From: Rhizodiscina lignyota | Taxonomy: Eukaryota | DNA length: 41,512 nucleotides | NCBI GenBank assembly: GCA_010015805.1 | Contig: ML978148.1 | Coordinates: forward strand, 1 to 41,512 | Direction: 5' to 3' | In this document: positions 1 to 41,512 of the stretch, in pieces | Numbering within the stretch: position 1 is the first letter of the stretch | Layout of the letters: each line of letters begins with the position of its first letter | Notes under the pieces: generated by a model | The model's database searches: none | The model's input: the letters and a program-made list of their open reading frames with translations, nothing else | What the model was told of the DNA's origin: nothing | Program-made: the position numbers and the translations under genes

Positions 1-1208
1 CTAGTTCTTTATATAGAAAGCCTTTTTTAACTATTTACTAATTTTAGATAGCCCTTAAACTTCGTAATACGATTAATATTTACTACTAGCACGCTCTTTA
101 AGATAAGTTTAAGAAGTAAGATAAGTATAATCTTACTCTTAATATACTCTTATAAGATAAGTAGTACGACTTTACTATTATTAAAACCCTTTTAGAACCC
201 TTTACCTTCGCTACTAAATATACTAAAGGAAATTATACTAATATAAGCCTAATAGCGTAACTACTAACTATAGAGTATATACTTAAGAGACTAAAGAAGA
301 AGAAAGAGTAGATATAGCGCGATAAGGGCTTTAGGTTCGCTATAAAAGTAGTAGAGATAATATAAAAGAAACTCGATAAGTACTATACTCTCTCTAATTA
401 AATACTAGTATACTACCTTACTACCTTCCTAGACCCTTACTTTAGTATATAGTAGTTTAAATAGTACTAAAAAGAGAAGAGTATTTAGATAACTACTATT
501 AGAAGCTTTATTAATAAGGAGTACGTAAAGTACTATATAGTATTTAGGCTAGAGTCTTAAGTATCTAATAATACTAATAACTCGTAACTTCCTCTAGTAC
601 TAGCTAGTATAGGTATATAGTAGCGCGAGAGTTACTACTTTATAAAATATACTAAGCTAGAGTATAATAATCTTAATATACTCGCGCCTAATTAACCTAC
701 TATTTATAGTAAGCTAGAACGCTATAAATAACGCCTTATTCCTGTAAAGAATATTGATATTCTTAAGTAGTAGCTATCTAATAAGGACGAATACCTAATC
801 CTATGTAAAATAGCTATTAACTACCTTAGAATCCTAGTATAGTTATTAGATATTAAGCGTTATTTTAGTATAGCTAGTAGAATAGTAACTAAGGCGAGAT
901 CTAAGCTTAAATAATATATAGTTAAGGCGATTGAATACCTTCGAAGTTAGGAGTAAGCTAGCCTTAAACCTTTCGAGAACTAGTATCTAAAGGAAGAAGA
1001 ATTAGAGAGTACTAAAGGCGAAGGCGAAGATAACGGCGATAACCTAGATTAATATACTAATCAGTATAAATTCGTACTATCTAATTGCTATAGATAATAT
1101 CTAATTTATAATGTTTAAACTTAACTATTCGCTTTTAGATTTATAGTAAATTTACAGCAATTTCGTCGAATTTCGCTCGCTGGCGCGCTCAAAGCGCGCT
1201 TAACACTA
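1..1208 (+). mobile_element. 3' part of a RIP-mutated hAT-superfamily DNA transposon, including the probable right terminus
   Basis: TpA-rich, CpA/TpG-poor sequence. + strand translation ~708-950 reads SKLERYK*RLIPVKNIDILK**LSNKDEYLILCKIAINYLRILV*LLDIKRYFSIASRIVTKARSKLK*YIVKAIEYLRS*, which matches the hAT C-terminal dimerisation domain (WW..n...yP.L..mA.dyL.iP....ER.FS....R..L....ea..cLrsW) with W/Q codons turned to TAG/TAA. A TFLDP motif lies at ~423-437. The element ends ...GCGCGCTTAACACTA at 1208 (reverse complement TAGTGTT..., a typical hAT TIR start). Confidence 0.85.
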
Positions 1209-1314
1209 TATAAATCTGTTATCAGTGGCAAATCTATTCAATATATATTAATCTCGATGCAATTCGATGATTTATAAGCCGACGCTATTTAGATGCGACC
1301 CCCGCCGACGCGGT

Positions 1315-6901: not shown

Positions 6902-7309
6902 GTCTATTTCTCCTGAAGATTGTCTTTTATGGGCACCAATCTTTTCTTGCATGGCGCACAGAATGGGTCGCGCGACAGCCGAGCATCTGGCCCATCCCTT
7001 GCCAGCGTCCTGATATCGGACCACCACTAATATCTCTCATTCTTCTGTCGCGCATTTTCCATTCTTCTCTAGCCATCCTAAATTAACGGAGCAAGGGAAT
7101 CTTCGTGGATGCTCACTGTCCATCTCTTCCCATTCTGTCATCTTTGTAGTACCCGCACACTTGAGACAGTCTGGATGTCTCGACCATCGCAGGAAACCTT
7201 TCGTATACGGCGGAGACGGGTCTGCTTCGAGCCTTGAGGCGGCATGGTCAGCACTCAGGCCATTATGAGTGCACCACTGCTGTTCATCCTGTTCATCAGG
7301 CGAAATACG

Positions 7310-10300: not shown

Positions 10301-10504
10301 AGAGCGTCAATTATCGATCGACCAAAGTCTAGTTATCGAGCTCCATTGGAAGAGAAGAGGGACTCGAATTTGTCGCTGAGGAGCAGAACTGATGATGCGG
10401 GAGACGGTAAGCGAAGTGAGGCTGCGGCGGAGCAAGCAAAGAGCGGTGGGAAGGGCAAGCAAAGAGCGGAAACGCCTCTCAGAGGAAATGAGGCGTTCCT
10501 TTGA
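7310..10504 (+). CDS. AXL2: Axl2-like type I membrane protein with cadherin-like/putative Ig (He_PIG) repeats
   Basis: Signal peptide MALLVLSALLSFAVAA from ATG 7310, then PFNSQVPPVARVG, four P-S/A-WL-x-F-D/N...GTP Ig-like repeats, an S/T-rich stalk, TM helix IIAAIVICSLLGFVAFILIVLY, the SKTDISRP motif and a long disordered cytoplasmic tail. Confidence 0.8.
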   Translation: MALLVLSALLSFAVAAPQLALPFNSQVPPVARVGNSFSFTFSPTTFKPNSSKFQYSISGGPAWLQFDAPYRTLWGTPGAADAGTTKFTITASDGSGSTQMSCILIVSTSQAPMSRTDVSGVLRGAGNMTGPTTLLTHPSQKFEVDFFPNSFDGHGKKLSFYATLADHTPLPSWLSFNSQTLHFSGVPPKLSSSPQDFNVLLIASDVAGFAGVSEQYTITVSTHTWAFDPQDQTFDIPSGSSVNIGNLQSLLLSDHGKSQGSVMEQADANVPSWLNFDSQSLAITGTPPAGLKQQDVNITAYDHYGDVANLTLHLRFDSLFNGEIGPLDVQIGKKFQYTISRSVLVNPDSTVSVELGQASSWLHFDSQNLELEGTVPEGAQTGLIAANITITTADHSGSDTKPLEIYIRKPAVSPSSSGLGSPGASPTSTTNSTVETSTPEYSSQRPSSKAKGIIAAIVICSLLGFVAFILIVLYCRCPKSWRKPHKPPSKTDISRPLPNEKSDSAIDLEIGTSDVRTPELLPQLPFNLSPVKTARTPRRPLPTSSKRMTSRSRFRRSLASSIIEEGDAEILTNFDRSSWGYGGNAAGSHNPHDSMKIPTAIARESHNSTILHGRHSDTRSSAFGQLKDRRSNGYRRITGRGHGRDSFFCTHCGSITYGYEVGNCIYCKNRDSLQPPRPQEDISESSYGTNSTSMISTTPSAFPIPPTWKSNSVSKMPRLLRVSGTLRSDRAETGKGSEASDVASELPDRRSIYDKRQSYVRRRTLNPSPFFSSRRESSGSSKAVAQMSGANGSGNPNAGSSASLRHIGSHRPVVRTYSGSSSLEPAPLSKRTEEKGKGIRARWAEGFPRAVGFSRVASKVRNSISSTQRFEDASEPETLSVYSQDPQGDTEASVSRSIDSLRARDSAYLGHAITTSEPATHPPLGPLPIPPKSPLRKRSQTQPTLGEDDGILEYPPEETPTIEEPSVAVAIRKARLQQTRRRNKTAGGKVKIYPDLKRASIIDRPKSSYRAPLEEKRDSNLSLRSRTDDAGDGKRSEAAAEQAKSGGKGKQRAETPLRGNEAFL

Positions 10505-11059: not shown

Positions 11060-14000
11060 TTAATTTGATACCGGCCAACAGCCAACAACAGCGCCTTCGT
11101 CACCATCAATGACGATTGCTGGAGCAGCGCCATATTCCAAAGGATTGCCCTCCCACACAACAATATCCCCTTTACCCCTCTTTTCTAGACCAAGGATATT
11201 CTCAATATTAACAGAGACCAAATCTACAGCCGCTTGGTCCGAAAGCCCTGCATACTTTGCCGCCCAGCTGGCTTCAAGCGGAAGGAAATGTATCTTGGAA
11301 TCACCCTCTGGCACTGAGTAAGTAAGCGCTCAACAAATTCAGGTGACCTGGAAGCCCTGCGTACCTGTACTGGGAATTGCTATCCCAAAAGTCACATTCG
11401 CCTCTGCTAGCACGGACGCTGCAGAACGTGTGAGCGGTGGGCCGATCAGGATATCTTTCTTCTCGAAAACATCAGGGCCTCCCCGGTTTCGAGTCAGGAT
11501 AATTGGTATATCCGCAGCGGCGAGTTCATGAGCAACAAGTGGTGCTTCAGCACCGCCCATAATGATGAGGTTTACCGATGAGTACTCTTTCTTCACTTCT
11601 ATCATTTGCATGATATCGTACTGCAAAGGTCAGCGTTATCATTTGATGAATTCGCAGCAAACGAACCTTGTTCTCCACATGAATGATGAGCGGGATGCTA
11701 CCATTCACCACCTTCCCATACATGTTGTCTTCTGCAGAATTATCTTTCAAGATCTTTCGGAGCTTTGCCACAGCAGTTGAAACAGTTGCAATATCCCCAT
11801 CTGTATCGCGTTAGTTCCAAGTAACATGAGACACTACTGCCGATGAACCTTTCGCATCTTGCCCAATAACAAGGTGGACTGCAACATCTGATTGAAAAAT
11901 GCCTCCATCCAACACAGTCTTCTTCCCGCTGGTCTTGATACCGACACTCACACCGCCGCCAAAGCCGCCATTCATGAGTGGCGTAGTAACAGCCCTGGTC
12001 ACGCCACCGATGCGCGCACGCTGAAAACCCCGGCCTTCGAGATGGATACCGTACTTGGCGTATACTAGTTTCTCCGGATCTGTCACGTCTGTCTTCGCAT
12101 TGACCACCCCATCGGCTGTGCTCTTCTCGGCGAAGATCTCAGCAAGTCCCAGGCTCTGTGAGACTGCTGTCAATCCAGGCAGGGCATGACCATTATTGAG
12201 TTGGACGGTAGGCAAACCTCTGTTTGTGGACATGCATTTGTCTGAAACGTCGAAGCATGCAATGCGGCCAGATTCCAGGACGAGCGTCAAATTTCTATCG
12301 GCAGTATCGAACGACTGATAGTCCTGGAGGAAGGACGTCCTAATGCCTGTGATAACAATATCCGAGCCACCGTTCAGCTTTGAGCAAATATCATCTCTGA
12401 TAGACTCATCCAAAAGGGGTCGCACAGCCGGCTGCATTGACTTCCGATTTAGCACTGAACCCGAGGATGGCATACTGTCCTTTGTTTTCTTTGGGTCCAA
12501 AGTCACCTTCCCATCGACGAAAACCTGAAGTGGAGTAGCTCCAACAGAAAGTGGATGCGAATCCCAAACAACAAGATCGGCGTCGTACCCGACCTTGACA
12601 TATCCAATGCGATGATCTTGCTCTAGTGACTTGGCAGGCACGCTGGTTACGGACTGCATGGCTTTGATTTCCGACATGCCAAACGAATGGGCCATTGCAG
12701 CTTGAGACATGACATATTTCGCGTTTGTCGTCTCCTCTCCATGATCAGACTTGTATGCGACAGGAACACCATGCTCCTCGAGAATCTTACCGGCGTACAA
12801 GCTTGCGCCATACCCTTCATGTTTATATAGCGCAAAATCGGAGAAGGTCGCAATCGTAATGTTGTATCCACTGTCTTTGATCATCTCCGGCACTTTCCAA
12901 GCTTCGAGCGCATGGTGGAATGCCTGGATGCGGAAGCCGAATTCTTTCGTATGGAGCAGCATGTCCTCAAAGTCTTCCGGCTCGTAACAGTGCGTATTGA
13001 CGCCGACTTTCCCTCGTAAAATTGCCACTGAAGATTCAAGCTCTAGCTGCTCCGGAAGTCCGCCTTTGCTAGATTCGTTCGGCATTGTCAATGTATGAAT
13101 TGCATTCTTGTCTCCCTTGTCCTGCGCAACTGCCGCTGCAAGACACCATGCATCCTGCTTTTCGCGCAGTTCTACTGCTCGTTCCATGTGCTTGCGGAAG
13201 ACCCACGCGTTGCCCATTCTCGTGTGTTTATACACACGGCGCGGGTTTTCGCCGCACGCCATTTTCATATAGCGGCGGCGGTCTTCTTTCGGGATGCCAT
13301 GCTCGAGCAACATCTCCTCTACAGTCTCTTCGCCGTCCTTGCCTGCCCGCAGCACGTTCTTCACGATGAATGCCTCGCCCCCCATGACGTTGGCTGAGCC
13401 AGGAAGAATGAGGGACGTCGTGACTCCGCCAGACCTGATGATGGTGGTGCCCTCATCATAAGGCTTAATCCCATCCAGAGATCGCACGAATGGAGTGAGC
13501 GTGCCAAACTCATCGTTGACCTCGTTCGTATCCTCTGTAGCGGAGAATGCAGGCCACGTCCCGACCAAATGATGTGAATGCAAGTCAACAAGGCCAGGCG
13601 TGACATATTTACCGCCGACGTCGAAGACTTCAGCATCATCATCAAACCATTCGGCTGTCTTTGCGTCCGCAGCAACAGCTGTGATCATGCCCTTGGCAAA
13701 GAGCACGTCGACGGTGCCGTCAAACCATTTGTCACCGTCGAACAGTGTGACATTCTTGAGGATTACGGTGTGGTTCTGGCCGCTGTATTTGTTCCATCTT
13801 GAGTTGGTCCCCGTAGAAGTCGGTGGGATGGCGTATTCAATTGGTGGCGTATTGAACTCTGTACATTTCCGCAGACCCTCTTCGAGGCGGTTGATAGCAT
13901 ACTCATTCAGCTTGAGTTCGCTTGGAGAGGAAGAAATACGAGAAGGAATGAGCCAAAATTGAACATAGAATAATGAAGCTACGAGAAAAACAGTGACGAT

Positions 14001-14078
14001 AGGAAGATGGAGTCGGCGTCTTCCGCGGTCATCTGAGGGTCTGAGAAATGCCACCCCAGGCACGTTGAGGGTGCCCAT
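11060..14078 (-). CDS. Membrane-anchored two-domain metallo-dependent amidohydrolase (CE9-like composite), 4 exons
   Basis: N-terminal hydrophobic anchor; VTPGLVDLHSHH, GGVTTSLILPGSAN, KMACGENP, NTHC, FHHA, KSDH and IGYVKVGYDADLVVWDSHPL motifs. A second degenerate amidohydrolase repeat ends GDIVVWEGNPLEYG. Three GT-AG introns join ORF-track pieces 11811.., 11547.., 11339.. and 11060... Confidence 0.88.
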
Positions 14079-16803: not shown

Positions 16804-18945
16804 TCAACCTTTCTTCTCGAAATAAGACTCCACCCTCTCCACCAGATCCTTCTTTTTGCCACTGATACTCTCATTCTTCTCCGAGAGCCAGCTCTTCAGC
16901 TGCGGCATCGTGAAACTGTTGAGGGACTGTTTCTCAAAGGCACTCCGCATTGTAGCATCGGTGATTCCATCCCCATCGCCATTCGCAGCACCACCGCTTT
17001 TCTTCGTTCGTTTCGTTGTGGCATCGGTCGTGGCATCGGCGCCACGTTTGCTGCTGGATCGGTTCTCCTCCTCCCATGCTCTATGCTGGGTGTCGAGCTC
17101 TTCCGCGAAGTCTAGTACGTACGGACCAGTGCGCTGTAGGCCATCGTTAGACTGTGATGAAAATTAAGGAATGTTGTGAACGCACTTTATCAATCTGCCT
17201 GTACTTTGGAATTGTCTTGTCCTCAGGCAGTTGGGGCAGGTCTTCCTCCAAAGCCATGGCTTGAAGACACTTGTAAAACCATTGCAGTGCTACCCGACCG
17301 TCAATGCTGGCTCAATTGTTGAATTTTACGAAGAACTCACATGGATTCGGATACCGTGAAGGATTAAACACTCCTCCTGGTAGCTGCAACTGTTGAACAA
17401 CCGGCCTCATCTTGTCAACTACAGAATCTGGAGCAACAATTGGTCTGTCTGGGCCAAGGTCCGGATTCTGTCTGACGTCGTCTGCGTATGGCAACGGGAT
17501 TGCCCATAGCCCTGGAGGCGCTACTTGCTCTTTCGTAATTTCGTCAATCTGCTCAGCACCCGGAGTGAGAGCTGCCAATACGGGAGAAGCGTTACGGCGT
17601 GGAATGAACCAGCAGAGAGCGAATTTCGATTTCTGCAGTAGTGATGCATGGAGAGCAGCAAACGTGCGTGTGGAACCAATGTAGTCTTCTTCAGAAGGGT
17701 AGACGAAAATTGGCGCCCGTTCATTTGCCCACGGCGGAAGAAGGTCGAGGTTTTTGAAACCAATGATGCGAATGGTGGGATCGCCGAATACGCTGCGGAG
17801 ACCGGTCGCCTCATCCTTTGAGAATGAAACGGTCTCGCCGCCAAATTTGTACGCCTTGCGAATCTCAGTCGGTTCCACACTGCGTGCAGTGTCATCGGCG
17901 AGGCGCGAAGTAGTGAGAGTCGCAATCTGAGGTACTTCGCCATTGAGCCACACATAGCAGCTTCGGACACGTTCTTGGCGCTTGATGATGATGTACCCTT
18001 TGACAGAAATTTTCAGGTCTGGTCCAATCTCGAACGGCAGATTGAAGAGAGCACGGCGAGGTGTTGCCTTGGAGTTGATTGCTGAAAGTAGAGATTGCAG
18101 GAGCGTAATGCCATCAGAGGAGCCGATTGTTGATGTTTTCGTGGCTTCCAAAGTGGGTACCGGAGCCTCAGGATCGGATAACGGAGGTCGGTAGACGATG
18201 TCGTCGTAGAATTTCGAGCGATCAAACTGTCCATCGGGCTTGGAGATGGGGAAGAGCTCGATGATAACCCCAAGGTCATAGAGGTCCTTTGAGCGCACAG
18301 TCGCAGATCGTCGAAGCTCCTTTTCTCCGGGCGAAGAATGAGGACTGTCGTTATCCGTGACGAAGAAGAGTCGACGAGAGCTGAAGTTTGGAGCTTTGTT
18401 AGTGAATATTTGGTTGGCACAAAACAAGACACTGCCCATGGCGACACCTGGATCCTCTTTCGTAGGGCTGGACGGGATAAGCAGCTTTGATGCTTCTTCT
18501 TCATTTTCAACCAAGTTTCGTAGTCGCTTAACATCGCTCGCTTCTGGGACATCAAGGTCGCTCAGCAGATAGCAGTGCGGAAATGCAGGGGGACCGCGAG
18601 CCTCTCCTTCTTCGAACTTGGACTCCTTTGTGCCGAAGAGCAGTATGCCCATCATATCCTTTGGATTGGAGATGATGCGCTGCTGCATCAGCTGGTATGC
18701 ACATTTCAGGGCGGCGGACGTTGCAGAATCGCGATCGAGTTTCTTGTCCTTGGTCTCTGGCGGCCTCTCTAGCATTGACGGGCTAACATCAATGGCAAAG
18801 AGAACTGCATCCTTTACAGTTCTGTAGCCCTAGAATTATAGTTAGCGTGAGATGTGTTGATTGCGAAGATCCAACGAACGCTCTCTCCAATCTCTTCTTC
18901 TTCCTCTTCATCACCTTCCTCGTGTTTCTCTTCTGGTTCTGCCAT
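16804..18945 (-). CDS. KU70: Ku70, ATP-dependent DNA helicase II 70 kDa subunit (NHEJ)
   Basis: Exon 1 [22 protein letters not shown], intron, then [20 protein letters not shown] and [28 protein letters not shown] (vWA domain), [44 protein letters not shown]-terminal SAP domain ([12 protein letters not shown]...[18 protein letters not shown]) closes the protein. Confidence 0.96.
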
Positions 18946-19232: not shown

Positions 19233-20662
<1,430 letters not shown>

Positions 20663-20922: not shown

Positions 20923-22971
20923 TTATCCTCCACCACCAATGACAAACGACCAAGCTGCAATAAGGCCCAGGAACACGCTTGTCGAGAGTTTCGTGAAAAA
21001 GCCAGTGACAACTGTGCTCGCTCTTCTCCCGTAGCCGCGTTGAGGCTCATCCTCATCAGAGTCAGGCGTGCCGTCTTCACCGCTCTCGCCGGTGTCATCC
21101 GGAACAGCGTCGTCGAGGTGGACTAATCGCGTTTCTCAGTATCTGACACCAACGGCTCATCTAGAATATCAAATGTGTTGGAAAATTGAACCGCACAACC
21201 CAAACGCCGGGGAGGGTGGGAGGAGAACATACCGTGTGGTCTGACGAACCACGAACACACGAACGCGACGCCGAATGTAGCTGCTAGACAGACGAATACT
21301 GTTTGATCAAACTTTCCTACTGTGGCGGAGTAGATGCCATTGAAGATGGTTGGTGCGACGACACGAGCGAGTGCGTGCAGAAGACCGCTTGCACCGAGGA
21401 GTTGGCCGACTCGATCGTGCGGTACGTGCTTCGTGAGAGCCGCTTGCATTGTTGGTGATCCGATGCCACCAGCTGAAGCAATAGCACCTGAAATGATGAA
21501 AAGTGTGCCGTCGCGCGCAATAGAGTATCCAACGAAGCCCATCATGTCGAAGACTATTGCCAGGCGGATAACGCTGAGGTCAAACAAATCAGAGCCGGTG
21601 TTTCGTTGTCGTGGTCGTGTAGCAGCTGGACCACGAACTATGCGAGTGAGCAGAGGCATGAGGATAAGTAGGCAGGCTACGCGGCAGCTGTTGACGATTG
21701 AAACGAAGCGAGAGGACTCAAAATTGCCCCAGCCGAACTTGTAGTTGGTGTAGATGACGATGATGCTCATTGCACCCATGGCTACGCCGAACATGATGGT
21801 GTCCACCGCCGCCAGTAGGACCAGATTCCGCCTCAGCGCCACGTTCGTGCCGGGACCAGTCGGATACAGAATCTTGAGCGGGGCGAGTAAGTTGAAGCTG
21901 CGGAGTTGATTGATCCAATCGGCAGCCGGACCCAACTCCTCCATTTCGAGTCGGTGCTTTTCCTGAGCTGCAAGTTGGCGACGCACAGAAAGTGATTCGG
22001 GTATCACAAATATGAGGACTATAATGAAGAAAATGTGAACGCCAAGAGCGACATAGAAAACGGTGACGACGGTGCCAGTGAGCTCAATGAGATATGCCGC
22101 AAGAATTGGTCCGAGAGCAATACCCGTGAACAAGCAGCCGTGGAAGAACCCAAACACAACATTGCGTTTGTGTGGGGGTGTGCAATCGGCCGCATAAGAG
22201 TTTGATATGGCCATGCTCGCAATGAATGAGCCGCAAAGACCCTCGGCCAGAAATCCAAGCAGCAAGTATGGGCTAGGAAAGGTGTCTGGTCTGGTCGCTG
22301 CAGCGATGGTGATGAGTTCGGTGACAAACATGCCAGCGCTGCAGTAGATGAGTATCCGCTTGCGTCCATATCTGTCGCTGAGCGCGCCAAGTTTGGGTGA
22401 CACGATAGCGGACAGGATTCCGGATATCAATTGTCCCGCCAAAGTAAACTGCGCGACTCGTGCTGAGACTTCAGGTATCCTGCATTGTGGATTGTCGTCG
22501 CCATATATTACGGGCAGAAAGGTGAACGAAGGGTCGTTGATCGCTTTGTCGGACATGTACTCGCGGCAGATGAGGGTGACGTAGAGATTAAGCTTTGGGA
22601 CGATAATGCCGCCAAATGCAAGCGCATAGACGAGGAAACATGGTAGTAGCCAGTATATCTTAATTCAAGTCAGCGACAGTCTAGATCATAAGGTACGGTG
22701 GACAAACTGAGGGCCTCTTATGCCAGGGAACATCAACGAAGTCCCTGTCGCCCGGCCAATCGTCATCTGAACCACCAAAATTGCTGCCGACTGGAGATGA
22801 ATATCCCTCGCCCAGCAAGGGACTCTCCTCTCCTTCTCGATCACGTCTACGAGAGTCTATGTCTCCCGTTGCTACTGTGATCGCCTTCTTTCCAAGCTCT
22901 TGCTGTCCCTTGGAGTTGTGCTCTGCGTTCTCAATCTCCGCCTCTGCTTCGAATATTTCTTCGTTCTGCAT
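20923..22971 (-). CDS. MFS transporter (tetracycline-efflux/DHA1-like), 3 exons
   Basis: Exon 1 ends ...VPWHKRPS; MFS motif A LGALSDRYGRK; ~12 hydrophobic segments. After intron GTATGT...GATTAG the frame continues RPHVHLDD... to a stop at 20923-20925. Confidence 0.9.
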
Positions 22972-29790: not shown

Positions 29791-30807
29791 GGCTCTCTGC
29801 TCGGTTTCCAAGAGCATTTGAGTGGTTTAAATCATGTGAGATATTGAAGATGGCCTTTCTTGAGGATTTCATTGTTGTGTTGCGGCGGAAGGGACGTCAT
29901 CCCATCACCATGACATCAACACCTTTTGTATGTCAATCGTTGACAAAGCTTTCATGCGAAGGGCGAATTCTCATCAATTACACATGTGCTTCCAGCAGGC
30001 AGCTTTGCGATGAGGTTAATATGAAATTGTATCGAAACAGTTTCTTGCCGGCGCCGTTGATGTTTCACAAGGCGCGCCGCCCGACGCTGTATGCCGTGCA
30101 AGAGCGTGGCGATGACGCTTAGCACATATAATAATTTGCGCAGATACCTGATCCGGCATACCATCTTTACTAAGATTACTAGTAAAAGCCATGTCTAGGA
30201 GAAATTGCTGCGTAAAATTAAGGGTTACACCACAATTTTGTTCGGTATTTTGTCCGGCCTTAAATAGTCTTCTCTTCTCTTTATACATGCCTGCCTGCTC
30301 TGAAACGTGCTAATTTAGCTTTAAAGAGCGGGAATAACACAAATGTAAGCTATAAGTGATCTGATCTCTTGAGAGCTGTAAGAAAGATAAGTAAGGCCCG
30401 CTGGTGCTTTGTGAGAATGCCTAATTTGTAATATACCCTACGAGCAACTTTGGGTGAGTACCGAGAGAGCTATAGAGTAGTGCCCGGATTAATAGACTAA
30501 GCTGTAGTAAGCGCGTTAGCGAGTACTAGCTGAGCCGTTCGTAGTATCTAGGAGAGCTGTGGGTGAGCTGTAGGTAAGCCCTCGAGTTAAGAGGTTAAAT
30601 GTAGATAGAGAAATAAGGATTCCTAATAGGCTCCTAATAAGCTCCTAAACGAGCTCTAAAGAGCCGGATCAGGCTCTTTAATGTAAACTCCTAGTGGCCC
30701 CCTGCCTTATCGTCACTAATTCTCGCATAATTTGCATTTCTACCGTCGGAATTCTTGTCGAATCCCTCTTATTAACAAGAGACCTTGTATACTTATACTA
30801 ATAAGTC

Positions 30808-31500
30808 TTAGATAAGCCGTAAAGTTTGAAGTAAAACCCTTCTATATTATACTTCTTTTATAGCTTTACTATACATTATCCCGTACACGTAGCACGGACT
30901 AACTAGCGTATATTACTCGTCTTATTATCTAACGACAAGAGGTAATTAATAACTAAGAATAATATATATTTAATCTCCTTTTATAGTCCTAGGGGGGCCT
31001 ATACCTATATAACCCTCTTTTATAATGAAAAAGGCTCTATTCTTACACGCGTTACCTATGGCATCCGTAAATATAATACAATAATTCCGCCCCTTTTACT
31101 TGTCGGTTATTACTAGCCATTAAAGTCGATATACCGATTATCGTAGGCTAAGGAAAGACTTAAGAATGCCCTCTTCTGATAAAGGATTAGGAATAGTCCT
31201 TTCCTAGTTTATATATACTTTAATATAGTCGTTAAAATAGGCTAGCCCACCTACTTCCGTCGGAGATATAGAAGGTATCTTACGTCTAGCTTTACTCTAC
31301 TTAGGCAGTAATAAACCTAAAATGTATAGAAATCTAGCGGCTAAGTTGTAAAAGTGTTTAGCCTCTCTAGAGTCCGGAAAATCGTCGATAGAGAGGGCAT
31401 AGTTAGAAGAGTCGCAGATTAAGGTTCTGAAATAAGCTTGTATTACTGTTATCCCCGTTAGATGAAGAGCTCGGCCTTAAGACAAAACGAGATCTACTTA
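30808..31500 (-). pseudogene. RIP-inactivated C-terminal part of a HET-domain-type (het-6-like) gene
   Basis: Minus-strand frame reads ...HLTGITVIQAYFRTLICD...CKNRAFFIIKEGYIGIGPPRTIKGD*IYIILSY*LPLVVR**DE*YTLVSPCYVYGIMYSKAI...LRLI*. This is the R.FF.T..GY.G.GP....GD.I.I..G...P.V.R......L.G.CYV.G.M.GEA signature of the C-terminus of HET-domain proteins. The HET domain itself was not recognised upstream. Confidence 0.75.
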
Positions 31501-33644
31501 GTTAGTCCTTCTTATAGAAATGCGAAGCACTAACTACTAAGTTTTCTCAACAACAAATGTCCTAAAATCTCGTTGGTTAAGGCAAGGCTGCGAAGGCTAC
31601 GAAGGCTGCGATACGGCAGCTGGGATACCCTCTCTAAATTAAGAAAGTCGAATCTCTTAAGGCCTAAATCTAAGGACTCTAGTTCTGTCTAATAATTAGA
31701 CTCTCCTATAAGAATCTACTCGCTTAAATACGTTTCAATTCGAGTACTTCCTATTTATTTCAGAATATTATCGCCTGTACACTAAGTCGAGCTCCGCTTA
31801 GCGTTCTAAGAGTATTACTATTAAGCAAGCAGGTGAACGCGCCGTACAATAGCTAGAGTATCTCGCTAGCGGAGACGAAGCCTTCCTATTATAATATCCG
31901 CTCTACTGTTTCTAGTAACGCAATTATAAAAGCTTAGATAATGTTTAGAGGCGCTTAGGACACGAAGCGAGAGCAGCCTATTTTAACGCACTCGTAGCCT
32001 GTCTATTAGCAAGGAATGTAGGCATTACGAGCCATCCGTTTAGAAATTAAGACTTGCTCGCAGAGTAGCAAGATCTTTAGCTGTCGTTTCTGTAAGCTCT
32101 TACTTCAAGTTGTAGAGCTCGTTCTAGAAGCTCCTGCATACAAATTTTCATAATCATTTCTTGAAAAAATCCGGGGCGAAGTAATCTCTAACAAAATGGG
32201 CCGCAAGGTCGATAACACTACTAAGCTAAGGCTATTCGGACAGATGCCTGTTAATGCTTATCTGCCTATAGTACATATCTACCTTACCGCCTAGGGCTTA
32301 ACGCTAACTAGCTACTAGTTGTCACTATTACGAGTTAGTCGCATAGTAAGGTTGCTAGCGTTATGCTTTATATCCTTTATAGACCCCGAAGTACTACGCT
32401 TATCTTAAGATCTAAGTAGAGCGAGTACGGATAACTTCTATATTAGCAGATCGCGGCGCGTAGTAAGTAGTATTGTCGTAAAGAGGAATATCGTCGTTAA
32501 AAGCTAGAGTCCGATAGGGGCAATTAGCTACTGAATGTCGACACGGAAATAGGGCGAAGTTATCCAGGCTATCCTAAGGGCTGTTTAGTTCCTACCCTAG
32601 TCAGGCTAACTTCGTAGCCTATAGTCGTACAATCGTTAGCTAATATTAGCCTCGTAAAGGACCTGTAGTCTACGTACGTATTAGTCATACTATTAGTAAA
32701 GCTACTTATTAAGTTGCTAAATCCCTCGAAAGCTAGACGGGAATTAGGAGGCTTTAATAAGTCTACCTATATGGCTAATCCAAATATAGCGGTAGAAGTA
32801 GACGCTATAACGTCGAAGTAGCTAGCATTAAGCTAGCGTAATATGCCGCTCCTAACTAATGCGGTACCTTGTAACACACTATTACTAAGGTAATACGTAG
32901 TAGAGTCGAAGCCCTCCTAATCTAATGTATAATTAGTACCTTCGTTGTCTAGCTAGAACTAGAAAAGTCCTTAGTAAGTAAATAAATTGTGCTTATCGCC
33001 AAACTATCCTGCCTAGGGTAGGCTTCGTTGCACATTTCGTACGCTAGTCGATGTCGTCCTATTTAAGATAGTTGTTTCTAGAGTAGCTAGGCATAGGCTA
33101 ATACTCGCCTTAAAAGCATGGACTTGTACTAGCCTATATTGTTCGATGTAACCCGAACCTTTAAGTGATTCGTTTACCTGTTGCTATAAGTAGATGACAA
33201 AAACATCCGCCAATTTGAATTCGAATGGCGAGCCGTAAAGTGAATAATATAGGCGGCTTTGGTTCGCTGAAGGCAGTCTGTCAATAGCAAATATTCTAAT
33301 GTTATAACCGGGCGAACTAAGCCTACTTAAGCATTCTACTCTAGAACGCGTCGCCTTCCTGCAACTTGCCCTATTTCACCCCCTTGTTAACACCTAGGAA
33401 CGCGTCGCCTTCCCAATTTCACCCGCCTGCCCCTTATATTACGTGTACGGATCGTGTCGCGATTTACTGCCCTCTAGGAACCCGTCGCGAATCCCTCTCC
33501 CCCTAAATCTAGGCTTGTATAGCCTGTACGCTACACGCCCGTCCGCACTTAATAATAACTACTTTAACTACTATTATACTATTAATCTAATCGTACTAAT
33601 CTCTTTTTTAATCTCTCTCGCGCTCGCTTACTCGCTCGCTCTCT

Positions 33645-33650
<6 letters not shown>

Positions 33651-33676
<26 letters not shown>
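33651..33676 (+). repeat. (CT)13 microsatellite
   Basis: Perfect CT run inside a pyrimidine-rich tract just upstream of ATG 33702. Confidence 0.9.
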
Positions 33677-33701
33677 TTAAGCTTATTATCTCTTAAGAAT
33701 A

Positions 33702-34930
33702 ATGTTTTAAGCCCTTGTCGATAAAACTAAGCTATCTAGCTGCTAGGACTCTCTTACGAGCGTAGACTAAGACCGGAGGCTTACTATATTAGGGCTGTAT
33801 CTAGACCGAACTAAGCGCGTCGTTATCTGCATAGAGTGTAAGTACGCGCTTAAGCCGTCCGCTAAGGCCGTGTCTAAGCACCTTTAGGAGAAGTACTAAG
33901 TGCCTACTAAAGCCCGCCGCGGCCTTAATACCTTTATTAACTCGCTAAACCTACCGCATCCTAATAAGCTTAGTCTCTAGCCTAATAGCTTTATACTATA
34001 CCTACACCTTGCCGTCTAATCTAGCGCGGCTTGCAAGTACTACTAGTACCGGTCTACTAGCCTCGACCTCGTACGGCGCTACCTAGCGAAAGGGTACAGT
34101 TAAAAGGGCAGCCGTAAGACCTAGCTTCGCGATAACCTCCGTACTAGTCTAAGCCTATAGAGCTAGAGTTAGAACGGCGCGTAAGGATACTAGATAGTAG
34201 TAGCGGTAGTAGCGGCGGTAGTAGATAGTTAACACGCTTCTACGCTAGAGGTAGTAAGCGGCTCGCCGCGCCGCGAGAGAAGGGTTCTACTACTATACAA
34301 GGAAGAGGAGCATTAGGCTATAGAAAAGATGCGGGACTACTTAGCGGTAATAGATACTAGTATAAACGACCCGGCCTTTACGAGTACCTAGATACGTAGG
34401 ACTAGCTAGGCTAACACGTTTACTAGTACTAATTACTACTTACTCCGGCGCCTTACTAACCCTCCTACTCCGTACGGCTATAGCCTACTACTTAGCCGCC
34501 CCGGCACGGACGAGATTTATAGTAGCGCTAAGGACGAGTAGGCCCTTACTATAATTAGTCGTACTATCGACTGCTTCTTCGATTGGTACGAGGATACTAC
34601 GCGGAATACAGGCTACTCGGCCCGCTACTAGCTTTAAAGCCAGGTCTCTAGGAGGCCGTATAAGGCGCTATTTAAGCTACTAGCACGGGAGAGTACTAGA
34701 AGAAGGTACTAAGGGCTATAGAAGAGGCTTATATACTTCTTAGCCCGCCTATATCGCCTTAACAGCAGAGTACGCGGAGAGCTACTTAGCGTACAGCTTT
34801 TAGACGGCTAGTAAAGGGCTATAGAGCTAGTATAGGTAGCCGCCTCGCGACTTAAGCTAGACAGCCTAGCGGGTTAGCTACTACAGACGACAATAGGAGG
34901 TTAAGGCCTATACTTTCTAACTTATACTAT
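33702..34930 (+). pseudogene. RIP-mutated, 3'-truncated DUF3505-type (OrsD-like) zinc-finger ORF of a helicase-associated element (copy A)
   Basis: A single frame from ATG 33702 reads LGLYLDRTKRVVICIECKYALKPSAKAVSKHL*EKY..., ACKYY*YRSTSLDLVRRYLAKGY (CxxC...H...H after de-RIP), T*IRRTS*ANTF (WMRRTGW) and YKALFKL...TRRRY*GL*KRLIYFL. Recognisable coding pattern stops at ~34930. Confidence 0.72.
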
Positions 34931-35615
34931 ACGACTAGTTCGAGTCGAACCGATTTAAGCCTGCTAACAAATTTAGCGCCGGCAGGATAAGGAGGGGGTC
35001 GGACCGATTTAGGGTTTAGAGTCGAACCCGATTTGCGAGAAAGTAGTAAAGTAGCGCCTAGGGGCGGGTTTTAAGCGTATAGAAATATAGTCCTAGCCGC
35101 GCCTGACCCGGCCATGCAGTTAGAACTATTAGGGTTATAGTACGTTGTTGCGTTGTAGCCGTAGTCCGCGGTATACAGGAGTTTTCGTATTCGCGGTTAC
35201 ATAATCTAAGCAGGATTAGCAGTTTAGTATAGTACATAGCGAGTAAAACAAGTCGCGGTCGGACGTAGTAGGCAGGTAGGATAGTAGGTAGTATATTGTA
35301 GTTAAAGGCGGGTAAGCTATAGTTGAATATAGTAGGTTAATAGGGTAGTACACGCCTGTTTCCGTAGTACGAAAGTAGTTTCATAGTTATGTGTTTTAAG
35401 TAGGGCGGGCGGGTAGGCATGCGCGCGTAGCGCGGCTAGGGGCTGAAGCGTCGAAGCTACGAAATAAGAAAAGGGGGAAAAGATTAGGGATTTAAGTAGA
35501 TAATAAGACGTATTATTGAGTTCAGAAGGCCATTTAATAGTTGCCCTAGTCATTAGTTAAGGAAGAACCTATAGTAGAACTAAGGAGGGAGGGAGATTAA
35601 AAGATTAGGGGAGAG

Positions 35616-38600
35616 ATAGCAGGTTTTAGCGATTATTTCGAGCATTTACCGCAGTACAAGGCGATTATTTACAGGAGGTACAGGTACGCTGTCATTAGGA
35701 GTAGTATAGGTTTACATTTAAGCTAGAAGTATAAGAGCGAGTTAACGGTAGACGCGCGTAGGGCGATTGTAGCGGAGGCGAGTAGTATTATAGTAGAAGA
35801 CATTATAGTCACGCGCGAGGAGGTCTAGTATCTAGAGCCTACGTTAGCGCTATTAGCTAGTTTGTAGTTATAGGACGATAGTTATTAGTATGACGAGTAT
35901 AGACATATACGCCGTACGCGGGAGGACATATAGAAGTATTATAGGCGAGAGTATAGGTAGGCGAATAGGCATAGCCGTAGTAGGGCGACGAGGTTAGCTA
36001 TTATAGAGGCGTGAGAGTATAAGATGTAGACGGCGGGCGTGTATTACTAGCAGTTTTTCAGGATAGGAGGGTAGTAGCGGTTGTTTAAGGTAATAGTAAG
36101 GCTAGGGGGTAAGGGTAAGGGTAAAGGAGATAAAGGAGAAAGTACAGTTAATAGGGATAAGTAGATACAGCGCGTTACAAGGCGGTAGATAGAGAGGGTT
36201 TTCATGTTAGTAGACAAGTAGTTAAAGCGAGAGGCTAAGGAGGAGAGGGCGATAGTCTAGGCTAACACGAATAGATACGTACTATAGACGTAGTTAAGGA
36301 GGGCGGGATAGGCGAGGTATTTAGAGGGGTTTAACTATAGGTAGTTAGTCGAGATAGCGGAGATACTAGTAGACAGAGATAGGAGCGACAGCGATAGTAA
36401 TAGTAGTAGTAGCGACGATAGCAGCGACGATAGTAGTAGCGAAAGTAGTAACAGCGAAAGTAATAGTAAAAGTAATAGCGAAAGTAGTAGTATAATAGAT
36501 ACGAGAAGAGAGTAGGAGTTAGTTAGGGTGTATAATATAGTATAGATAGTTATTTAGGAGGCGTAAAAGGCAGCATAGCCAGAAGTTGTAGGTTTTACAG
36601 CTACATGTTATATAAATAGGAGAGAGACGGGCGAGATATCGAATAAGAAGCCGTTAAACGTAAGGTAGTAGGGTAAGACGATTAAGAGATACGCTAAGGT
36701 TTAGTATAAGGTAGTTTGTTATATTTAGAGGACGTAGGGTTTGTTAGAGGCGATAAAAGGGGGGAGGGGGAGAAGGAGTAGTAGGAGTAGTAGTAGTAGT
36801 AACGGTAATAGCAGGTCGGGGGACGCGTCGACAGGGCTAGTAGAAGAGGATTTAGAGAAAGATTTAGAAAGGGATTTAGGGTTAGATAAAGAGATGTGTA
36901 TAGAGATTAAAAGGGCTAGGCGAGAGGGAAGAAGGTAAGGAGGGAGGGATAGGAGAGAAGAGGCAGAAAATAGTATTAGGTAGAAAAGACCGCCGTATAG
37001 ATTAACTAGTAGATAGGTTAGAGTATTAATACAGGTTAGACAGGCTATTAGGCGTAAAGAGGAGCAGGGTAAGAAGGTATAGGGGCGGGGGTAAGAGTAG
37101 GAGTAAGAGTAGGAGTAAGGAGAGGAAGAGAAGGGAGGAGATAAAGAAGATAGTAAGGTAGAAGCGGTAATATTAGAGTTTTTAATCGTATTATTAGACT
37201 ATAACGTGTAGGACGACGTATATATAAATAGCATTATTAGCGGATTGGCGGTTTTAGGGTTGGATGAGGATTGCGCGTGGAAAGGGCCGTCCAGGGCGAC
37301 GCGAGCATTGTCAGCGGTCGTCACAGTCGCCAGGATGTTGGTTTTATACCGCGCGAAGTTGATGAGGGAAGCAGCAATTAAAGAGATGAGGGAAGAGCAA
37401 GGTTTCAGCCGGGCAGAGGCATCAAAGAAGGCGCCGACCCATTTCCAGTTAGCGTAGGAGATAGTATACAGGTTTATAACATTAACCGTATTTAGTAGTA
37501 AGCTAACGCTAATAAATTAGGTTTTAATGTTAAGGATGTACGGGTTAAAGGTACATTATAGCACAGTAGCAGACAGAGTAGTAGATTAGGTCAGCGACAG
37601 GTTGTTGTACAGCTATATTAGTTTTAGCATACCGGATTTACAGGCGATAATCTATAGGTTAGTATACGCGTCGTAGTTAAGGTTTAAGAGGAGGTTATTA
37701 TTATTGCATGTCAACGATAAGGGCCGGCCTAATAGCGCGGATACGACGATGTAGTTACTACTAGTAAAGATAGACTAGATAGTAGATAATATAGTAGAGA
37801 TAAGGGTTAGGTAGAGTTTCGTAGACGACGGGCGGAATAGAGAGGCGTTTAGTAGCGTCGATAGTAGTAAGTAGATAGTAGACAGAGTTATAGGGGAGCG
37901 GTAGTTACGTAAGGAGTTTGTCGATGCTAAGGCTACGCACGATATAATCTATAGAAGCTAGTAGTAGTAGCAGCGGCGGCGGTAGCAGAATAGTAGCGAT
38001 CTAGTTGTATAGAAGAAAGATAGGATCTAGTAGTATAAGAAGGATTTAGACGCGTATAGGCAGGATTTATTGGTATTAATACATATAACGGGAGGACAGC
38101 CGGCTAAGGGCATAGAGATTGTTATAGTATAGTATAAGAACGGCGCGGACGGCGCGGGCAGAGGTATTTTCGTAGAGGATAGGATGGTAGTATACGTAGT
38201 ATAGTACTACAAGGGCGTAGGGTTTAGTAGTAGGGAGAAGGTAATCTACCGGTATTTGCTACACGAGGTCGGGTCGTTATTATTATACGATTTATAGTTA
38301 GTAAGGCTGTTTTAGGATAGGTTAGAGAGTATTTCCACCGTTATATCGATAGCGGCGGCGGTAGCGGCGGCGGTAGAGGTTAAAAGAGATGGTAGCAGCA
38401 ATATTACTAGCAACAATAGTAGAAATATCGCTAGTAGTAGTAGAAGCGGCTATAGCCCGTTTTTATAGGAGCTAAAGCTAGAATAGGCGTAGTAGGGCCT
38501 AAAGATAAGAGGGAGAAGACAGTAAGGAGGAGGAGGAGGAGGAGGAGAAAGGGATAATAGAAAGGATAGATAGTAGCTACTATTGATAAAGACAGTGTAT

Positions 38601-41315
38601 TAGGATACAGATAGGGTTAGAAAGGCGATCTAGAAGGCTAGCATAATATATTTAGGGGTAAGGATAAACATTATATGTTAGAGGCATAGTAGCAAGGCGA
38701 TTTATAGGCAGTATATTAATAATAAGGCTATTATCCAAGCTATTACGAGAGGAGATAAGGACGGTAGGTAGTAAGAAGAGGACGAGGAGGGGGAGGGGCA
38801 GCATATTAACGGGTTTAATTAGAGAGAGGTCGGATTCTATTTATAGACAGGCTATAGCGCGTAAATAGGGGAGGGCATATATAGTAGGGGCGTCGATAAG
38901 TCGCTGTTCTATACTATAGCGCAGCAGGTCATATTTTAAAAGGTTAGTAAGGAGTAGTATAAGTTTTTAATATTCGAATCGGCGTTATAAGAGCCGGCTA
39001 AGCAGGGTTTAGTAGCGGCCCGTAAGAGGTAGTAGGTAGAGGAAGAAGAGTTTAGAAGGTAAGTAGTAATACGGAAGATAGATATAAGGAAGTAGTTGCG
39101 GAAGTTAGTCGGGCTAGACGTAGAGTTTAGAGGGTTGTAGGAGCTAGCGATTAAGGCGATTATATAGTAGAGAAGCCCGGTAGTAGCGATTATAGCGATA
39201 GGAGAGGGTAAGAGTTTGTTATTTATATTACTAGCGTTTTATTCTACAGGTATAATAGTAGTAGTAGTACTATTAATCATATTAAGGCAGGATATAGCGG
39301 CTAGATATAAGGTAGTAGGGATAGAGTGCATAGAGTAGAGTAGCGTGAGGCTATATAAGTAGGCGTCGATCGTATTCGTAACGCCGGAGTCGGTAGTAGG
39401 CGTAGCGTTTAGCCAGTTTTTAAACAGGCAGAGGGCGATAGGCTAGTTAGATTAGGTAGTAATTAACAAGTGCTACGTAGTATTAGATTCGAGCGAGGGG
39501 GGCGGGTAGAAGAGTCGGGTTTTACGGTTAAGGGAGTTAATCGGGGTAGAGACACAGATAGTATTTTTAAAGGCGATATTACTACTAGTAGACAAGCTAG
39601 AGTTTAAAAGATTAATAGGGTTTAGCGGTAGTAATAGTAAGAAGAGAGGCGGTAGTAGTAGTAGTAGTAGTAGGGAGAGTAATAGTAGTAGTAATAGAGA
39701 GAGTAGTAGTAGTAGTAAAAGAGAGAGTATAGAGGGAGAGGGAGAGGGAGAGGGAGAGGAAGAGGGAGAGTATTAGTTTAGGGCGCCGACTACAAAGAAG
39801 AATATTAAATACTAGGTAATTTTTTATAGCCAGGCGGAAGAGGAGAAGACAGTAGTTAGATTAGTAGAGGAGAAGAGGGCGTAGTATACGATACTAGGCT
39901 AGATTATAGTATATTATAACACAGTTAAGAAGACAGAGAGGTTAGTAAAAGTTTTAGGGTATAAGTATTTCTATAGAGTAGTAGGCGGTAAAGAAGAAAA
40001 GGCGAAGTTGTTATAGGTATTAAAAGAAGGCACAGAGTAGGTTTTCACGGCGATAAACGCGTTAGGATTAGGAGTTAATGCGCTGACGATTAGGGTAGTT
40101 ATATACGTAGGCAGGGTAAGGAAGTTAAGGAGTTTCATATAGGAGAGTAGTAGGGTAGGTAGGGATAGGAGGGCGTGCGAGTCGATCGTATTACAGGCGG
40201 TTAAGGTCGATTAGAGGACGGGCGAGGTTATATAGGAGGATAGGAGCTAGTAGGGGATAGAGGATAATATAATAGAGTTTATAGATTCGTAGGGCAATAG
40301 CTAGTATAGGAGGGTAGTATTAGACAGGGTAATAGACGGTAGGAGGGACAGGGAGAGGTATAAGGAGGGAGAGAAGGTGTGTAATATATATTACAGGAGG
40401 CGATTATAGAAGGGAGAAGGGTAGTTATAGGGGGAGAGATTATAGTAGCAGACGAGATTGTAGCAGGCGGAGGGATTATAGTAGCAAAAGGGATTATAGT
40501 AGGCAGAGGGATTGTAGCAGGCGGAATTGCAGTAGGTAGAATTATAGCAGGCGTATATACACAGCTAGAGCAGGTAGAGTAAGGGGAGAGGGAGAAAAAG
40601 GGTTATTAATAAGAATAGCGATAATAGTAGGGATAGAAGTAAGGACAAGAGGGAAAGGTAAGAGTTAAGAATAGAGTTTAATAGGGAGATAACAAGGCGT
40701 AGGGCTAGAGCAAAGGGTAAGAGGGTATTATAACAAGAATAGATAATTATAGAGTAGAGGTTAGAGGATATATTAGAGGAGTAGCGCGCGGGTTATATAT
40801 ATTATTATGCGATAGGTAATAGGGCGTACGTAGGGCACGAGTTCGAGGAGTGTTTAAGGGTAGGAAGTAAGGTTAACGTAGAGATGTTTAGAGAGGTAGT
40901 TAGGGAGGTTAAGGAGGGCGTTAAGTAGTAGAGGTTTACGGGTTGTTAGGGTTACAGGGTACTATAGGGGGTTTATAGGACGTAGGAGTTAAATAAGGCG
41001 AATAGTAGGTAGAAGTAGCGAAGGCAAGGGGTTTTCTAGTACTAGCATAAGAAAAGAGTATTAATCGAGGCGGTAGTAGCGTTGTAGTACGTAAAAGAGG
41101 AGGAGTTTAAGGGGTAGGTAAGAGGGGAGAGGGGGTAGGAGCGGGAGTTTTTTAACAATAAAGGTAGGAGGGGTAAGGATATAGATGTTAAGGTTAGTAA
41201 TAACGACGATTTAAGGGGGTTTAAGAGGTCGTTAGTTAAGTGGTTAGGGTTTAAGGAGATAGTAGGCGGGTTTAAGAGCAACAACGCGTGTAAGGTGTTA
41301 ATTCGATTTAGGTAG
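35616..41315 (+). pseudogene. ~1,900-codon DUF3505-YR-like-RecQ helicase polyprotein, RIP-inactivated
   Basis: All motifs sit in one frame (codon start mod 3 = 0): AIIYRRYRYAV (CxxC-YAV, ~35662); GLAVLG...LSAVVTVARMLV (37242-37345); TGGQPAKGIEI (38088-38120); Walker A IGEGKSLLFILL (39198-39233); NKCY = DECH (39465-39476); AINALGLGVN (motif V, ~40050-40079); *ESSRVGRD = QESGRAGRD (40140-40166); RecQ Zn-site YRRVVLDRVID...CNIYY; C-terminal WLGFKEIVGGFKSNNACKVL. Confidence 0.85.
40437..40553 (+). repeat. Imperfect 18-bp coding tandem repeat, (G/R)LQQ(A/Q)E after de-RIP, 5 full + 2 partial units
   Basis: Units AGATTATAGTAGCAGACG / AGATTGTAGCAGGCGGAG / GGATTATAGTAGCAAAAG / GGATTATAGTAGGCAGAG / GGATTGTAGCAGGCGGAA, in frame with the large ORF. 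Confidence 0.8.
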
Positions 41316-41429
41316 CAGCGTTTGTTTGTTTATTAATTGTTAGATTAAGCAGGCGAATTTAAGGCGATTCTAGGGCAGTTTTCGAGCATGAATTCGAGAT
41401 AGCGCTAGTTACGTAGGGAGTGTCGGCGG

Positions 41430-41512
41430 TAGGAGAGAAGGGGGCGATCTAATAGGTATTTGCCGCGCGAGGTAGGCGAGTTATTATAGTACGATTTGAG
41501 GTTAGTAAGGCT
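41430..41512 (+). pseudogene. Fragment of a second recombinase-like domain homologous to 38235-38310
   Basis: 41454-41510 translates RYLPREVGELL*YDLRLVR, compared with RYLLHEVGSLLLYDL*LVR at 38250-38306. Confidence 0.65.

Follow-up and report, generated by a model that had tools for sequence, protein, structure and literature searches.

The question raised by a 41,512-nucleotide stretch of Rhizodiscina lignyota DNA (NCBI GenBank assembly GCA_010015805.1, contig ML978148.1, positions 1 to 41,512 of the forward strand; hereafter the window) is what kind of protein was once encoded by a heavily mutated gene at its 3′ end, in which motifs reminiscent of a tyrosine recombinase stand among stop codons. 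This is a dead telomere-linked helicase (TLH)-type gene, at 35601-41309 on the + strand, which is of full length and in a single reading frame without a frameshift, and which carries 136 in-frame stops in 1903 codons. A preliminary description had read in it a tyrosine-recombinase catalytic signature with canonical spacing, hidden under repeat-induced point mutation (RIP). Direct reading and translation place the four motifs so described in one + frame:

38088..38120, + strand: box I, T-G-G-Q-P-A-K-G-I-E-I, with AAG (Lys) at 38106-38108 and Glu at 38115-38117

38205..38216, + strand: Y-Y-K-G (Y-H-K-G in homologues), with the candidate catalytic Lys (38211-38213) predicted to lie on a beta hairpin

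38679..38687, + strand: TAG-AGG-CAT (stop-R-H), where a Trp is now a stop, the second catalytic Arg is intact (AGG, 38682-38684) and a His follows

38847..38882, + strand: T-G-Y-S-A-stop-I-G-E-G-I-Y (the G-H-S...Y box), where TAT at 38853-38855 replaces a His and TAT at 38880-38882 encodes the candidate nucleophile Tyr

Conservation in intact relatives and structural models suggest that these motifs are probably the mutated active-site remains of a tyrosine-recombinase-like domain that precedes a RecQ helicase, such that TLH proteins would unite a RecQ helicase with a module for breaking and rejoining DNA. A stand-alone integrase was ruled out by context: the motifs make up the 'TLH domain' of a telomere-linked RecQ-helicase gene.

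A phmmer search of 1.84 billion representatives, in which the X-read translation of 37203-39101 served as the query, returned 957 homologues at E≤1e-3 (best E 4.5e-168, 52% identity). Selection from 150 listed matches for a box-I-like pattern with helicase motif I 200-700 residues later gave 61 sequences, and three of these were dropped because the pattern lay at the wrong place, leaving 58 intact homologues. The filter required R/K/X and E/D in box I, so the counts for Arg and Glu are partly selected, and those for the Lys, the second Arg, the His and the Tyr are not. With that limit on the first two counts, the Arg of box I and the Glu three residues later are present in 58/58. The Lys of Y-H-K, which had been put forward as the candidate catalytic Lys within Y-Y(H)-K-G, is also present in 58/58, with a His before it in 55/58. 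The second Arg is found in 58/58, preceded by Trp (40) or Tyr (17), and both the later His and the Tyr nine residues on are found in 58/58. The signature residues are likewise kept in 56/56 sequences of a second alignment, which overlaps the 58. Alignment of undamaged homologues had been proposed as a check on the signature, and it upheld the R of G-x-P-A-R-x-x-E, the hairpin K, the second R and H-x8-Y as invariant, but not the H after the second R, which occurs in 36/58. In this second alignment 11 columns are invariant across the 372-residue homologue P0117, and six of them are R70, E73, K105, R227, H272 and Y281.

The pattern extends to a further 205 homologues, none of which was used in building the profile to which they were aligned. 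Counted over non-gap cells, the first Arg is present in 183/185, the box I Glu in 185/185, the Lys in 183/183, the second Arg in 161/162, the later His in 135/158 (21 have Arg instead) and the Tyr in 156/157. Identity among the 263 homologues is only about 25-50%. Judged by their sequences, the intact relatives keep an invariant Arg, Lys, Arg and His-x8-Tyr together with the Glu of box I.

Replacement of the later His by Arg marks a TLH sub-group with the motif A-G-R-G-G-E-x-G-x-x-R-Y (P0243, P0245-P0261, P0263, P0266 and P0267). The canonical H-x-x-R-H is found in 19/21 of this sub-group, with Leu at that position in P0243 and P0267, and four other homologues (P0073, P0118, P0134 and P0201) contain both histidines and hence the full recombinase hexad.

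The predicted fold points in the same direction as the conserved residues. Different homologues were used for two template-free AlphaFold2 models. Model 1 is of P0008 (719 amino acids, 59-row alignment), with a predicted local distance difference test score (pLDDT) of 81.4 and a predicted template modelling score (pTM) of 0.76, and model 2 is of P0117, which is essentially the domain alone (372 amino acids, 56 rows, pLDDT 80.0, pTM 0.74). Both were searched against 48,161 chains. The top 12 chains for model 1 are all tyrosine recombinases or topoisomerases IB, with archaeal Xer (4a8e_A) at Z 10.6 and a root-mean-square deviation (rmsd) of 3.4 over 175 aligned residues. It is followed by XerA, XerH, Brujita integrase, Cre, XerD and the integrase of a methicillin-resistant Staphylococcus aureus (MRSA) strain, and then, in order, by bacterial TopIB, the XerD C-terminal domain, integron integrase, Leishmania topoisomerase I and variola topoisomerase. 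Model 2 matches 4a8e_A at Z 12.5 (rmsd 3.6, 156 aligned, chain residues 119-279), and its rows 1-32, which span Z 12.5-4.1, comprise recombinases, topoisomerases IB, protelomerases, Ndc10 and integrase-like repressors. The single exception is a Zincore/QRICH1 chain, and QRICH1 carries a Crypton-derived domain. The first unrelated row is at Z 3.2. A Foldseek search with model 2 gave tyrosine recombinases at all of ranks 1-28, the best being XerH (E 3.7e-3, probability 1.00). Tyrosine recombinases are therefore the best and nearly the sole structural matches of both models. Structure prediction had been proposed as a check in the preliminary description, and the signature that it had recognized is now supported both by invariance and by fold.

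The order of elements in model 2 is that of a recombinase, with a helix, the box I Arg, three strands with the Lys on a hairpin (K105 lies between strands 96-103 and 114-119), helices, the second Arg at a helix start, a loop, a helix, the His and the Tyr. Model residues 46..275 align on Cre 151..318, the ends of these ranges being merely compatible with a shared pocket. Protein-language-model neighbours, taken as a lead only, include NDC10_II, Phage_integrase, protelomerase and Integrase_2 (scores 0.77-0.80). Based on the models, the TLH domain of intact relatives is predicted to have the catalytic-domain fold of the tyrosine recombinases and type IB topoisomerases.

Several results weigh against this assignment, however. 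Comparisons of sequence to sequence did not recover it: Pfam recombinase families were found in 0/10 full-length homologues and, at E≤10, in 0/20 helicase-poor homologue fragments, an hmmsearch of the PDB with a helicase-free profile gave no recombinase and one chance match (eIF1A, E 0.5), and hhalign of the 58-sequence TLH alignment against 13 recombinases of E. coli K-12 gave E 0.41 and a probability of 0.14%. A forced, low-confidence hhalign alignment that placed the Arg, Arg, His and Tyr opposite R148, R247, H270 and Y279 of XerD was discounted as evidence. In the Foldseek search with model 2 no E-value reached 1e-3 and the TM-scores were 0.25-0.30; the 719-residue model 1 gave weak Cre rows only (E about 0.9). 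The spacing of the motifs is canonical, as had been claimed for the whole signature, only from His to Tyr (9 residues, or 8 in one tlh1-named relative). The other spacings are longer: the first Arg and the Lys are 35 residues apart vs 24 in XerD (R148, K172), the two Arg are 192 codons apart in the window (family range 144-192), and the second Arg and the His are 57 apart (family range 45-57), these spacings carrying disordered acidic inserts. The position three before the second Arg, which is His in the canonical H-x-x-R, is Ser (28), Ala (11) or Gln (9) in most of the 58. The preliminary description had noted the absence of this His, which proved true of most homologues but not of all, since the canonical H-x-x-R is present in 23/263. 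Furthermore, model 1 gives the Tyr segment a pLDDT of about 60-65, and in model 2 (residues 273-289) it falls to <50, so the model cannot vouch for the catalytic pocket; the Tyr-bearing segment is mobile in real recombinases too. Lastly, a shared fold is no proof of function, as Ndc10 and phage repressors of the same fold are not enzymes.

The helicase context places the domain in a known family. Pfam detected DEAD (PF00270) and Helicase_C in 10/10 full-length homologues and a pair of C2H2 fingers, OrsD (PF12013), at the N-terminus of 6/10, and no Pfam family on the approximately 900 residues between OrsD and the helicase in these ten proteins. A profile built from the 145 homologues of alignment A1, in which whole lengths were aligned, hits RecQ5, RecQ1, BLM and WRN with E-values of about 1e-70 to 1e-58, and an hmmsearch of the PDB with the whole-length profile was dominated by RecQ helicases. 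One relative, from Neolecta, is named 'ATP-dependent DNA helicase tlh1', and others, named 'RecQ' or 'Bloom-like', are from Alternaria, Gaeumannomyces, Colletotrichum, Fusarium, Trichoderma, Penicillium and Hortaea. The TLH motif was reportedly originally described by Rehmeyer et al. in 2009 in Curr Genet. In one preprint (10.1101/2024.02.27.582403) and in another, on Botrytis, telomere-linked helicases are described as having C2H2 motifs, a 'TLH domain' of about 250 residues just upstream of the helicase, and RecQ motifs, and their function is stated as undetermined. TLH genes are also described, in the accessible literature, as multi-copy and as variable in presence or absence between strains. 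By its architecture, the gene in the window belongs to this family, and its parts other than the four motifs are as follows:

35601..41309, + strand: TLH-type gene, RIP-inactivated, comprising zinc fingers, a helical region, the tyrosine-recombinase-like domain, the RecQ helicase and a C-terminal region

35655..35693, + strand: N-terminal C2H2/OrsD zinc-finger remnant, Y-K-A-I-I-Y-R-R-Y-R-Y-A-V, whose Cys codons have apparently become Tyr

37203..38087, + strand: conserved, mainly helical region 5′ of box I, where phmmer matches span query residues 1-386 in many homologues

39201..39215, + strand: RecQ helicase motif I, G-E-G-K-S (G-x-G-K-S in homologues)

39459..39476, + strand: remnant of helicase motif II, V-I-N-K-C-Y (V-x-D-E-C-H in homologues; consensus LDRIVxDECH)

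39897..40163, + strand: remnant of the helicase C-terminal domain (Pfam Helicase_C, E 4.7e-4, 20.8 bits, under the 23.5 cut-off)

The extent of the gene was established by tblastn of the homologue P0005 (1737 amino acids) against the window, which gave two colinear pieces in frame 3, residues 35-1472 at 35601-40385 and residues 1568-1736 at 40758-41309. Because P0005 aligns colinearly in one frame, the gene in the window is full length and free of frameshifts. The alignment includes the OrsD part of P0005, and the zinc-finger remnant is colinear with its OrsD (PF12013) region (residues 46-151); OrsD was not detected by Pfam in the damaged copy itself. The whole dead gene gave nothing in Pfam but the sub-cut-off Helicase_C match, which covers residues 1466-1554 of the X-read translation of 35502-41309, and for the translation of 37500-39500 the sole match was DEAD at E 0.12. 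In the P0008 model, the region that matches 37203..38087 is composed of helices with a pLDDT of about 76-97.

The TLH copy in the window was killed by RIP. That the motifs lie hidden under such mutation, as first described, is borne out by the RIP indices, which contrast strongly between 30001-41512 (TpA/ApT 1.5-2.5, (CpA+TpG)/(ApC+GpT) 0.25-0.66) and the gene block at 1501-30000 (0.3-0.7 and 1.2-1.5, respectively). Compared with P0005, the gene has 920 mismatches, of which 355 are explained by a single RIP-type reversal (T>C or A>G), vs 81 by the opposite direction and 196 by the eight kinds of transversion combined, and Trp accounts for 36 and Gln for 33 of the 121 aligned stops. Where a mismatch has just one RIP-type explanation, 102/119 of the inferred C>T changes are at CpA, and 158/236 of the inferred G>A changes are at TpG and 38 at ApG. 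Each deviation of the window from the signature (Lys instead of Arg, Tyr instead of His at two sites, a stop instead of Trp) is a single C>T or G>A step from the residue of the homologues. Hence TAT at 38853 can be read as the RIP product of CAT, as proposed, with His at this position in all 58 homologues and one C>T step between them. The Lys of box I, which had been described as one G>A change from an Arg AGG codon in a non-TpG context, is indeed Arg in 58/58, and since ApG accounts for 38/236 of the inferred G>A changes, the context of this AGG>AAG change is a minority one yet not rare.

An extreme strand asymmetry was also observed across 35000-41512, where GC skew is +0.38 to +0.68 and blocks of at most 1.5 kb (the last has 1012 bases) contain 77-248 C vs 355-506 G. 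Despite this G-rich strand, inferred G>A changes (236) exceed inferred C>T changes (119). The asymmetry may come from the composition of the ancestral gene or from repeated rounds of RIP on one strand. A RIP-like AT-rich stretch is also present at the other end of the window (1-1500; GC 0.33, TpA/ApT 1.68), and it resembles neither the TLH copy nor 30-35.6 kb.

Remains of other TLH sequences lie on both sides of the gene. The window ends about 200 bases past it, inside a second TLH-derived fragment (41401-41512) in the same orientation, in which 41455-41512 matches 38251-38308 (79% over 58 bases, E 2.6e-9) and 41401-41421 matches 37897-37917. This fragment reads N-R-Y-L-P-R-E-V-G-E-L-L and is nearer to the family consensus than is the main copy. 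Upstream, the RIP-affected DNA contains an OrsD-like zinc-finger remnant at 33816-33926 on the + strand (sub-cut-off Pfam E 0.0011; tblastn to residues 54-90 of P0005, E 0.092), which may be another truncated TLH N-terminus, and nothing else was recognized in six frames of the rest of 29.7-35.6 kb. No TTAGGG-type telomere repeat is present anywhere in the window, so a subtelomeric position of this TLH copy is not demonstrated. Positions 1500-30000 are ordinary fungal gene space, with Ku, ferrochelatase and other housekeeping genes at most 15-20 kb from the TLH copy:

7244-10504, + strand: He_PIG repeat protein

11811-14078, − strand: amidohydrolase

17312-18775, − strand: Ku70/80-type protein

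19964-20662, + strand: ferrochelatase

21123-22556, − strand: MFS transporter

What, then, could such a domain have done? That the short motifs are a chance pattern in RIP-scrambled sequence, in a domain unrelated to tyrosine recombinases, would agree with the non-significant outcome of all of the sequence-only comparisons, but it is very improbable given that two independent models have the same superfamily as their sole strong match, the score dropping from Z 4.1 to 3.2 where unrelated folds begin, and given that the motif residues are invariant in the 58 intact homologues, so that the pattern exceeds chance. It is also quite unlikely, in our view, that the recombinase fold is a binding or scaffolding module that loads RecQ on DNA without cleavage chemistry, in the manner of Ndc10 or the SroF/MrpR repressors. 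These are indeed among the structural matches (Ndc10, Z 5.6-5.8; SroF/MrpR, Z 6.8 and 5.9), and both the absence of the HxxR His from most members and the low-confidence Tyr segment would fit a module of this type. The Arg-Lys-Arg-His-Tyr set is, however, invariant or nearly so across 263 homologues at the low identity given above, which is hard to explain without selection on chemistry and argues against a role in DNA binding only; exapted folds such as Ndc10 have lost their catalytic residues, and the type IB topoisomerases are functional even though Lys takes the place of His at the HxxR position.

Two further possibilities are versions of the preferred reading, a breaking-rejoining domain joined to RecQ, rather than departures from it. 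The TLH gene could encode the transposase of a selfish transposon that combines a tyrosine recombinase with a helicase and is directed to chromosome ends, the domain carrying out site-specific excision and integration. This is not exclusive of the preferred reading, and we rate it as somewhat unlikely. Site-specific recombinases are the best structural matches (Z 12.5-8.3, over 7.9 for topoisomerases), the gene bears the marks of RIP, a process that targets repeats, TLH-derived fragments flank it on both sides, and the accessible literature describes TLH genes as multi-copy and as differing in presence from strain to strain. On the other hand, copy number is also explained by subtelomeric duplication via ordinary recombination, and no terminal repeats or conserved junctions were found in the window, where no search aimed at element termini was made. 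Alternatively, the domain could be a swivel of the type IB topoisomerase kind, which would relax supercoils or resolve intermediates that the attached RecQ helicase generates; a single chain would then do what RecQ and topoisomerase III do as partners, or would be an analogue of reverse gyrase. We rate this as unlikely. R-K-R-H-Y without the HxxR His is the pentad of the type IB topoisomerases (R130, K167, R223, H265 and Y274 in the vaccinia enzyme), and topoisomerase I of bacteria, poxviruses, Leishmania and human gives matches at Z 7.9-5.3, but recombinases outscore topoisomerases in both models and no topoisomerase-type N-terminal clamp was identified. The role may be that of a selfish-element site-specific recombinase, a topoisomerase-like swivel or junction resolvase, or a DNA-binding module only.

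If the domain is a breaking-rejoining module, as we prefer to read it, its Tyr would attack a DNA phosphate to form a covalent 3′-phosphotyrosyl intermediate that would then be religated or exchanged. Since the domain is fused directly to a RecQ (3′-5′) helicase, strand cleavage and rejoining would be combined with 3′-5′ unwinding in a single polypeptide, and this would presumably act on subtelomeric or telomeric DNA, the home of these multi-copy genes.

Comparison with known systems indicates how such a protein would differ from its nearest counterparts. The predicted fold is that of the Xer/Cre recombinases (archaeal XerA 4a8e/5hxy, XerH 5jjv/5jk0, XerD 1a0p and Cre 1kbu; Z 12.5-9.2, 137-156 aligned); box I Arg/Glu, hairpin Lys, second Arg, His and Tyr follow one another as they do there, and the His-Tyr spacing of 9 is the one seen in XerD (H270, Y279). 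Unlike Xer, Cre and lambda Int, most TLH proteins lack the HxxR His and have longer spacings with disordered inserts. They are also missed by Pfam Phage_integrase and by profile comparison, and they are eukaryotic proteins of about 1400-1800 amino acids in which the domain is fused to a RecQ helicase and zinc fingers. With the poxviral, bacterial (TopIB) and nuclear type IB topoisomerases they share the superfamily fold (Z 7.9-5.3) and the R-K-R-H-Y set without the HxxR His, but these topoisomerases score below the recombinases as structural matches and no topoisomerase N-terminal domain was seen. The nearest relatives in architecture are Tlh1/2 of S. pombe, TLH1 of Magnaporthe, UTASa of Ustilago and TLH of Fusarium, which, as described in the accessible sources, are multi-copy and combine C2H2 fingers, a TLH domain and a RecQ helicase. 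The copy in the window differs from these in that it is a RIP pseudogene near housekeeping genes, with no telomere repeat in the window.

By description, not by sequence, the TLH genes can also be likened to Cryptons, DIRS/Ngaro elements and Starship 'captains', which are eukaryotic, repeated, exposed to RIP and carry a tyrosine recombinase. No Crypton, DIRS/Ngaro or Starship element is known to carry a RecQ helicase. A DNA-cleaving and rejoining module is joined to a helicase in one chain in Helitron Rep-Hel and in reverse gyrase, an analogy that implies no homology: the Helitron protein is an HUH nuclease with Pif1 and reverse gyrase is a topoisomerase IA with a superfamily 2 (SF2) helicase, so folds and chemistry differ from those of TLH. 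A term search of a 2026 paper on fungal recombinase elements (PMC13465315) found no mention of helicase, RecQ or telomere. A full-text literature search, which covered few subscription journals and had InterPro and CATH outside its scope, found no report linking TLH genes to the tyrosine recombinase/topoisomerase IB superfamily, and no assigned fold or function for the TLH domain was found in the literature searched.

The biology of the window copy, a pseudogene killed by RIP, is modest, and the interest of these results lies in the TLH family as a whole. Fission yeast, smuts, rice blast, Fusarium and numerous further fungi have TLH genes at their chromosome ends, and the tlh genes of fission yeast recur in the literature on heterochromatin and subtelomeres. 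We tentatively raise the possibility, which falls well short of a probability, that TLH proteins are active tyrosine-recombinase-plus-RecQ enzymes, a previously unrecognized eukaryotic class. By cutting, unwinding and rejoining DNA, they would copy subtelomeric elements from one chromosome end to another or move them there. The role of such a recombinase-helicase may be that of a selfish transposon or of a telomerase-independent device for the maintenance of chromosome ends, with the TLH-specific domain as its catalytic heart. If the domain is indeed a working breaking-rejoining enzyme, the TLH family would be a recombinase-helicase fusion rather than 'just another RecQ', and this would bear on how subtelomeres are duplicated and moved, on survival without telomerase, and on the definition of eukaryotic tyrosine-recombinase mobile elements.

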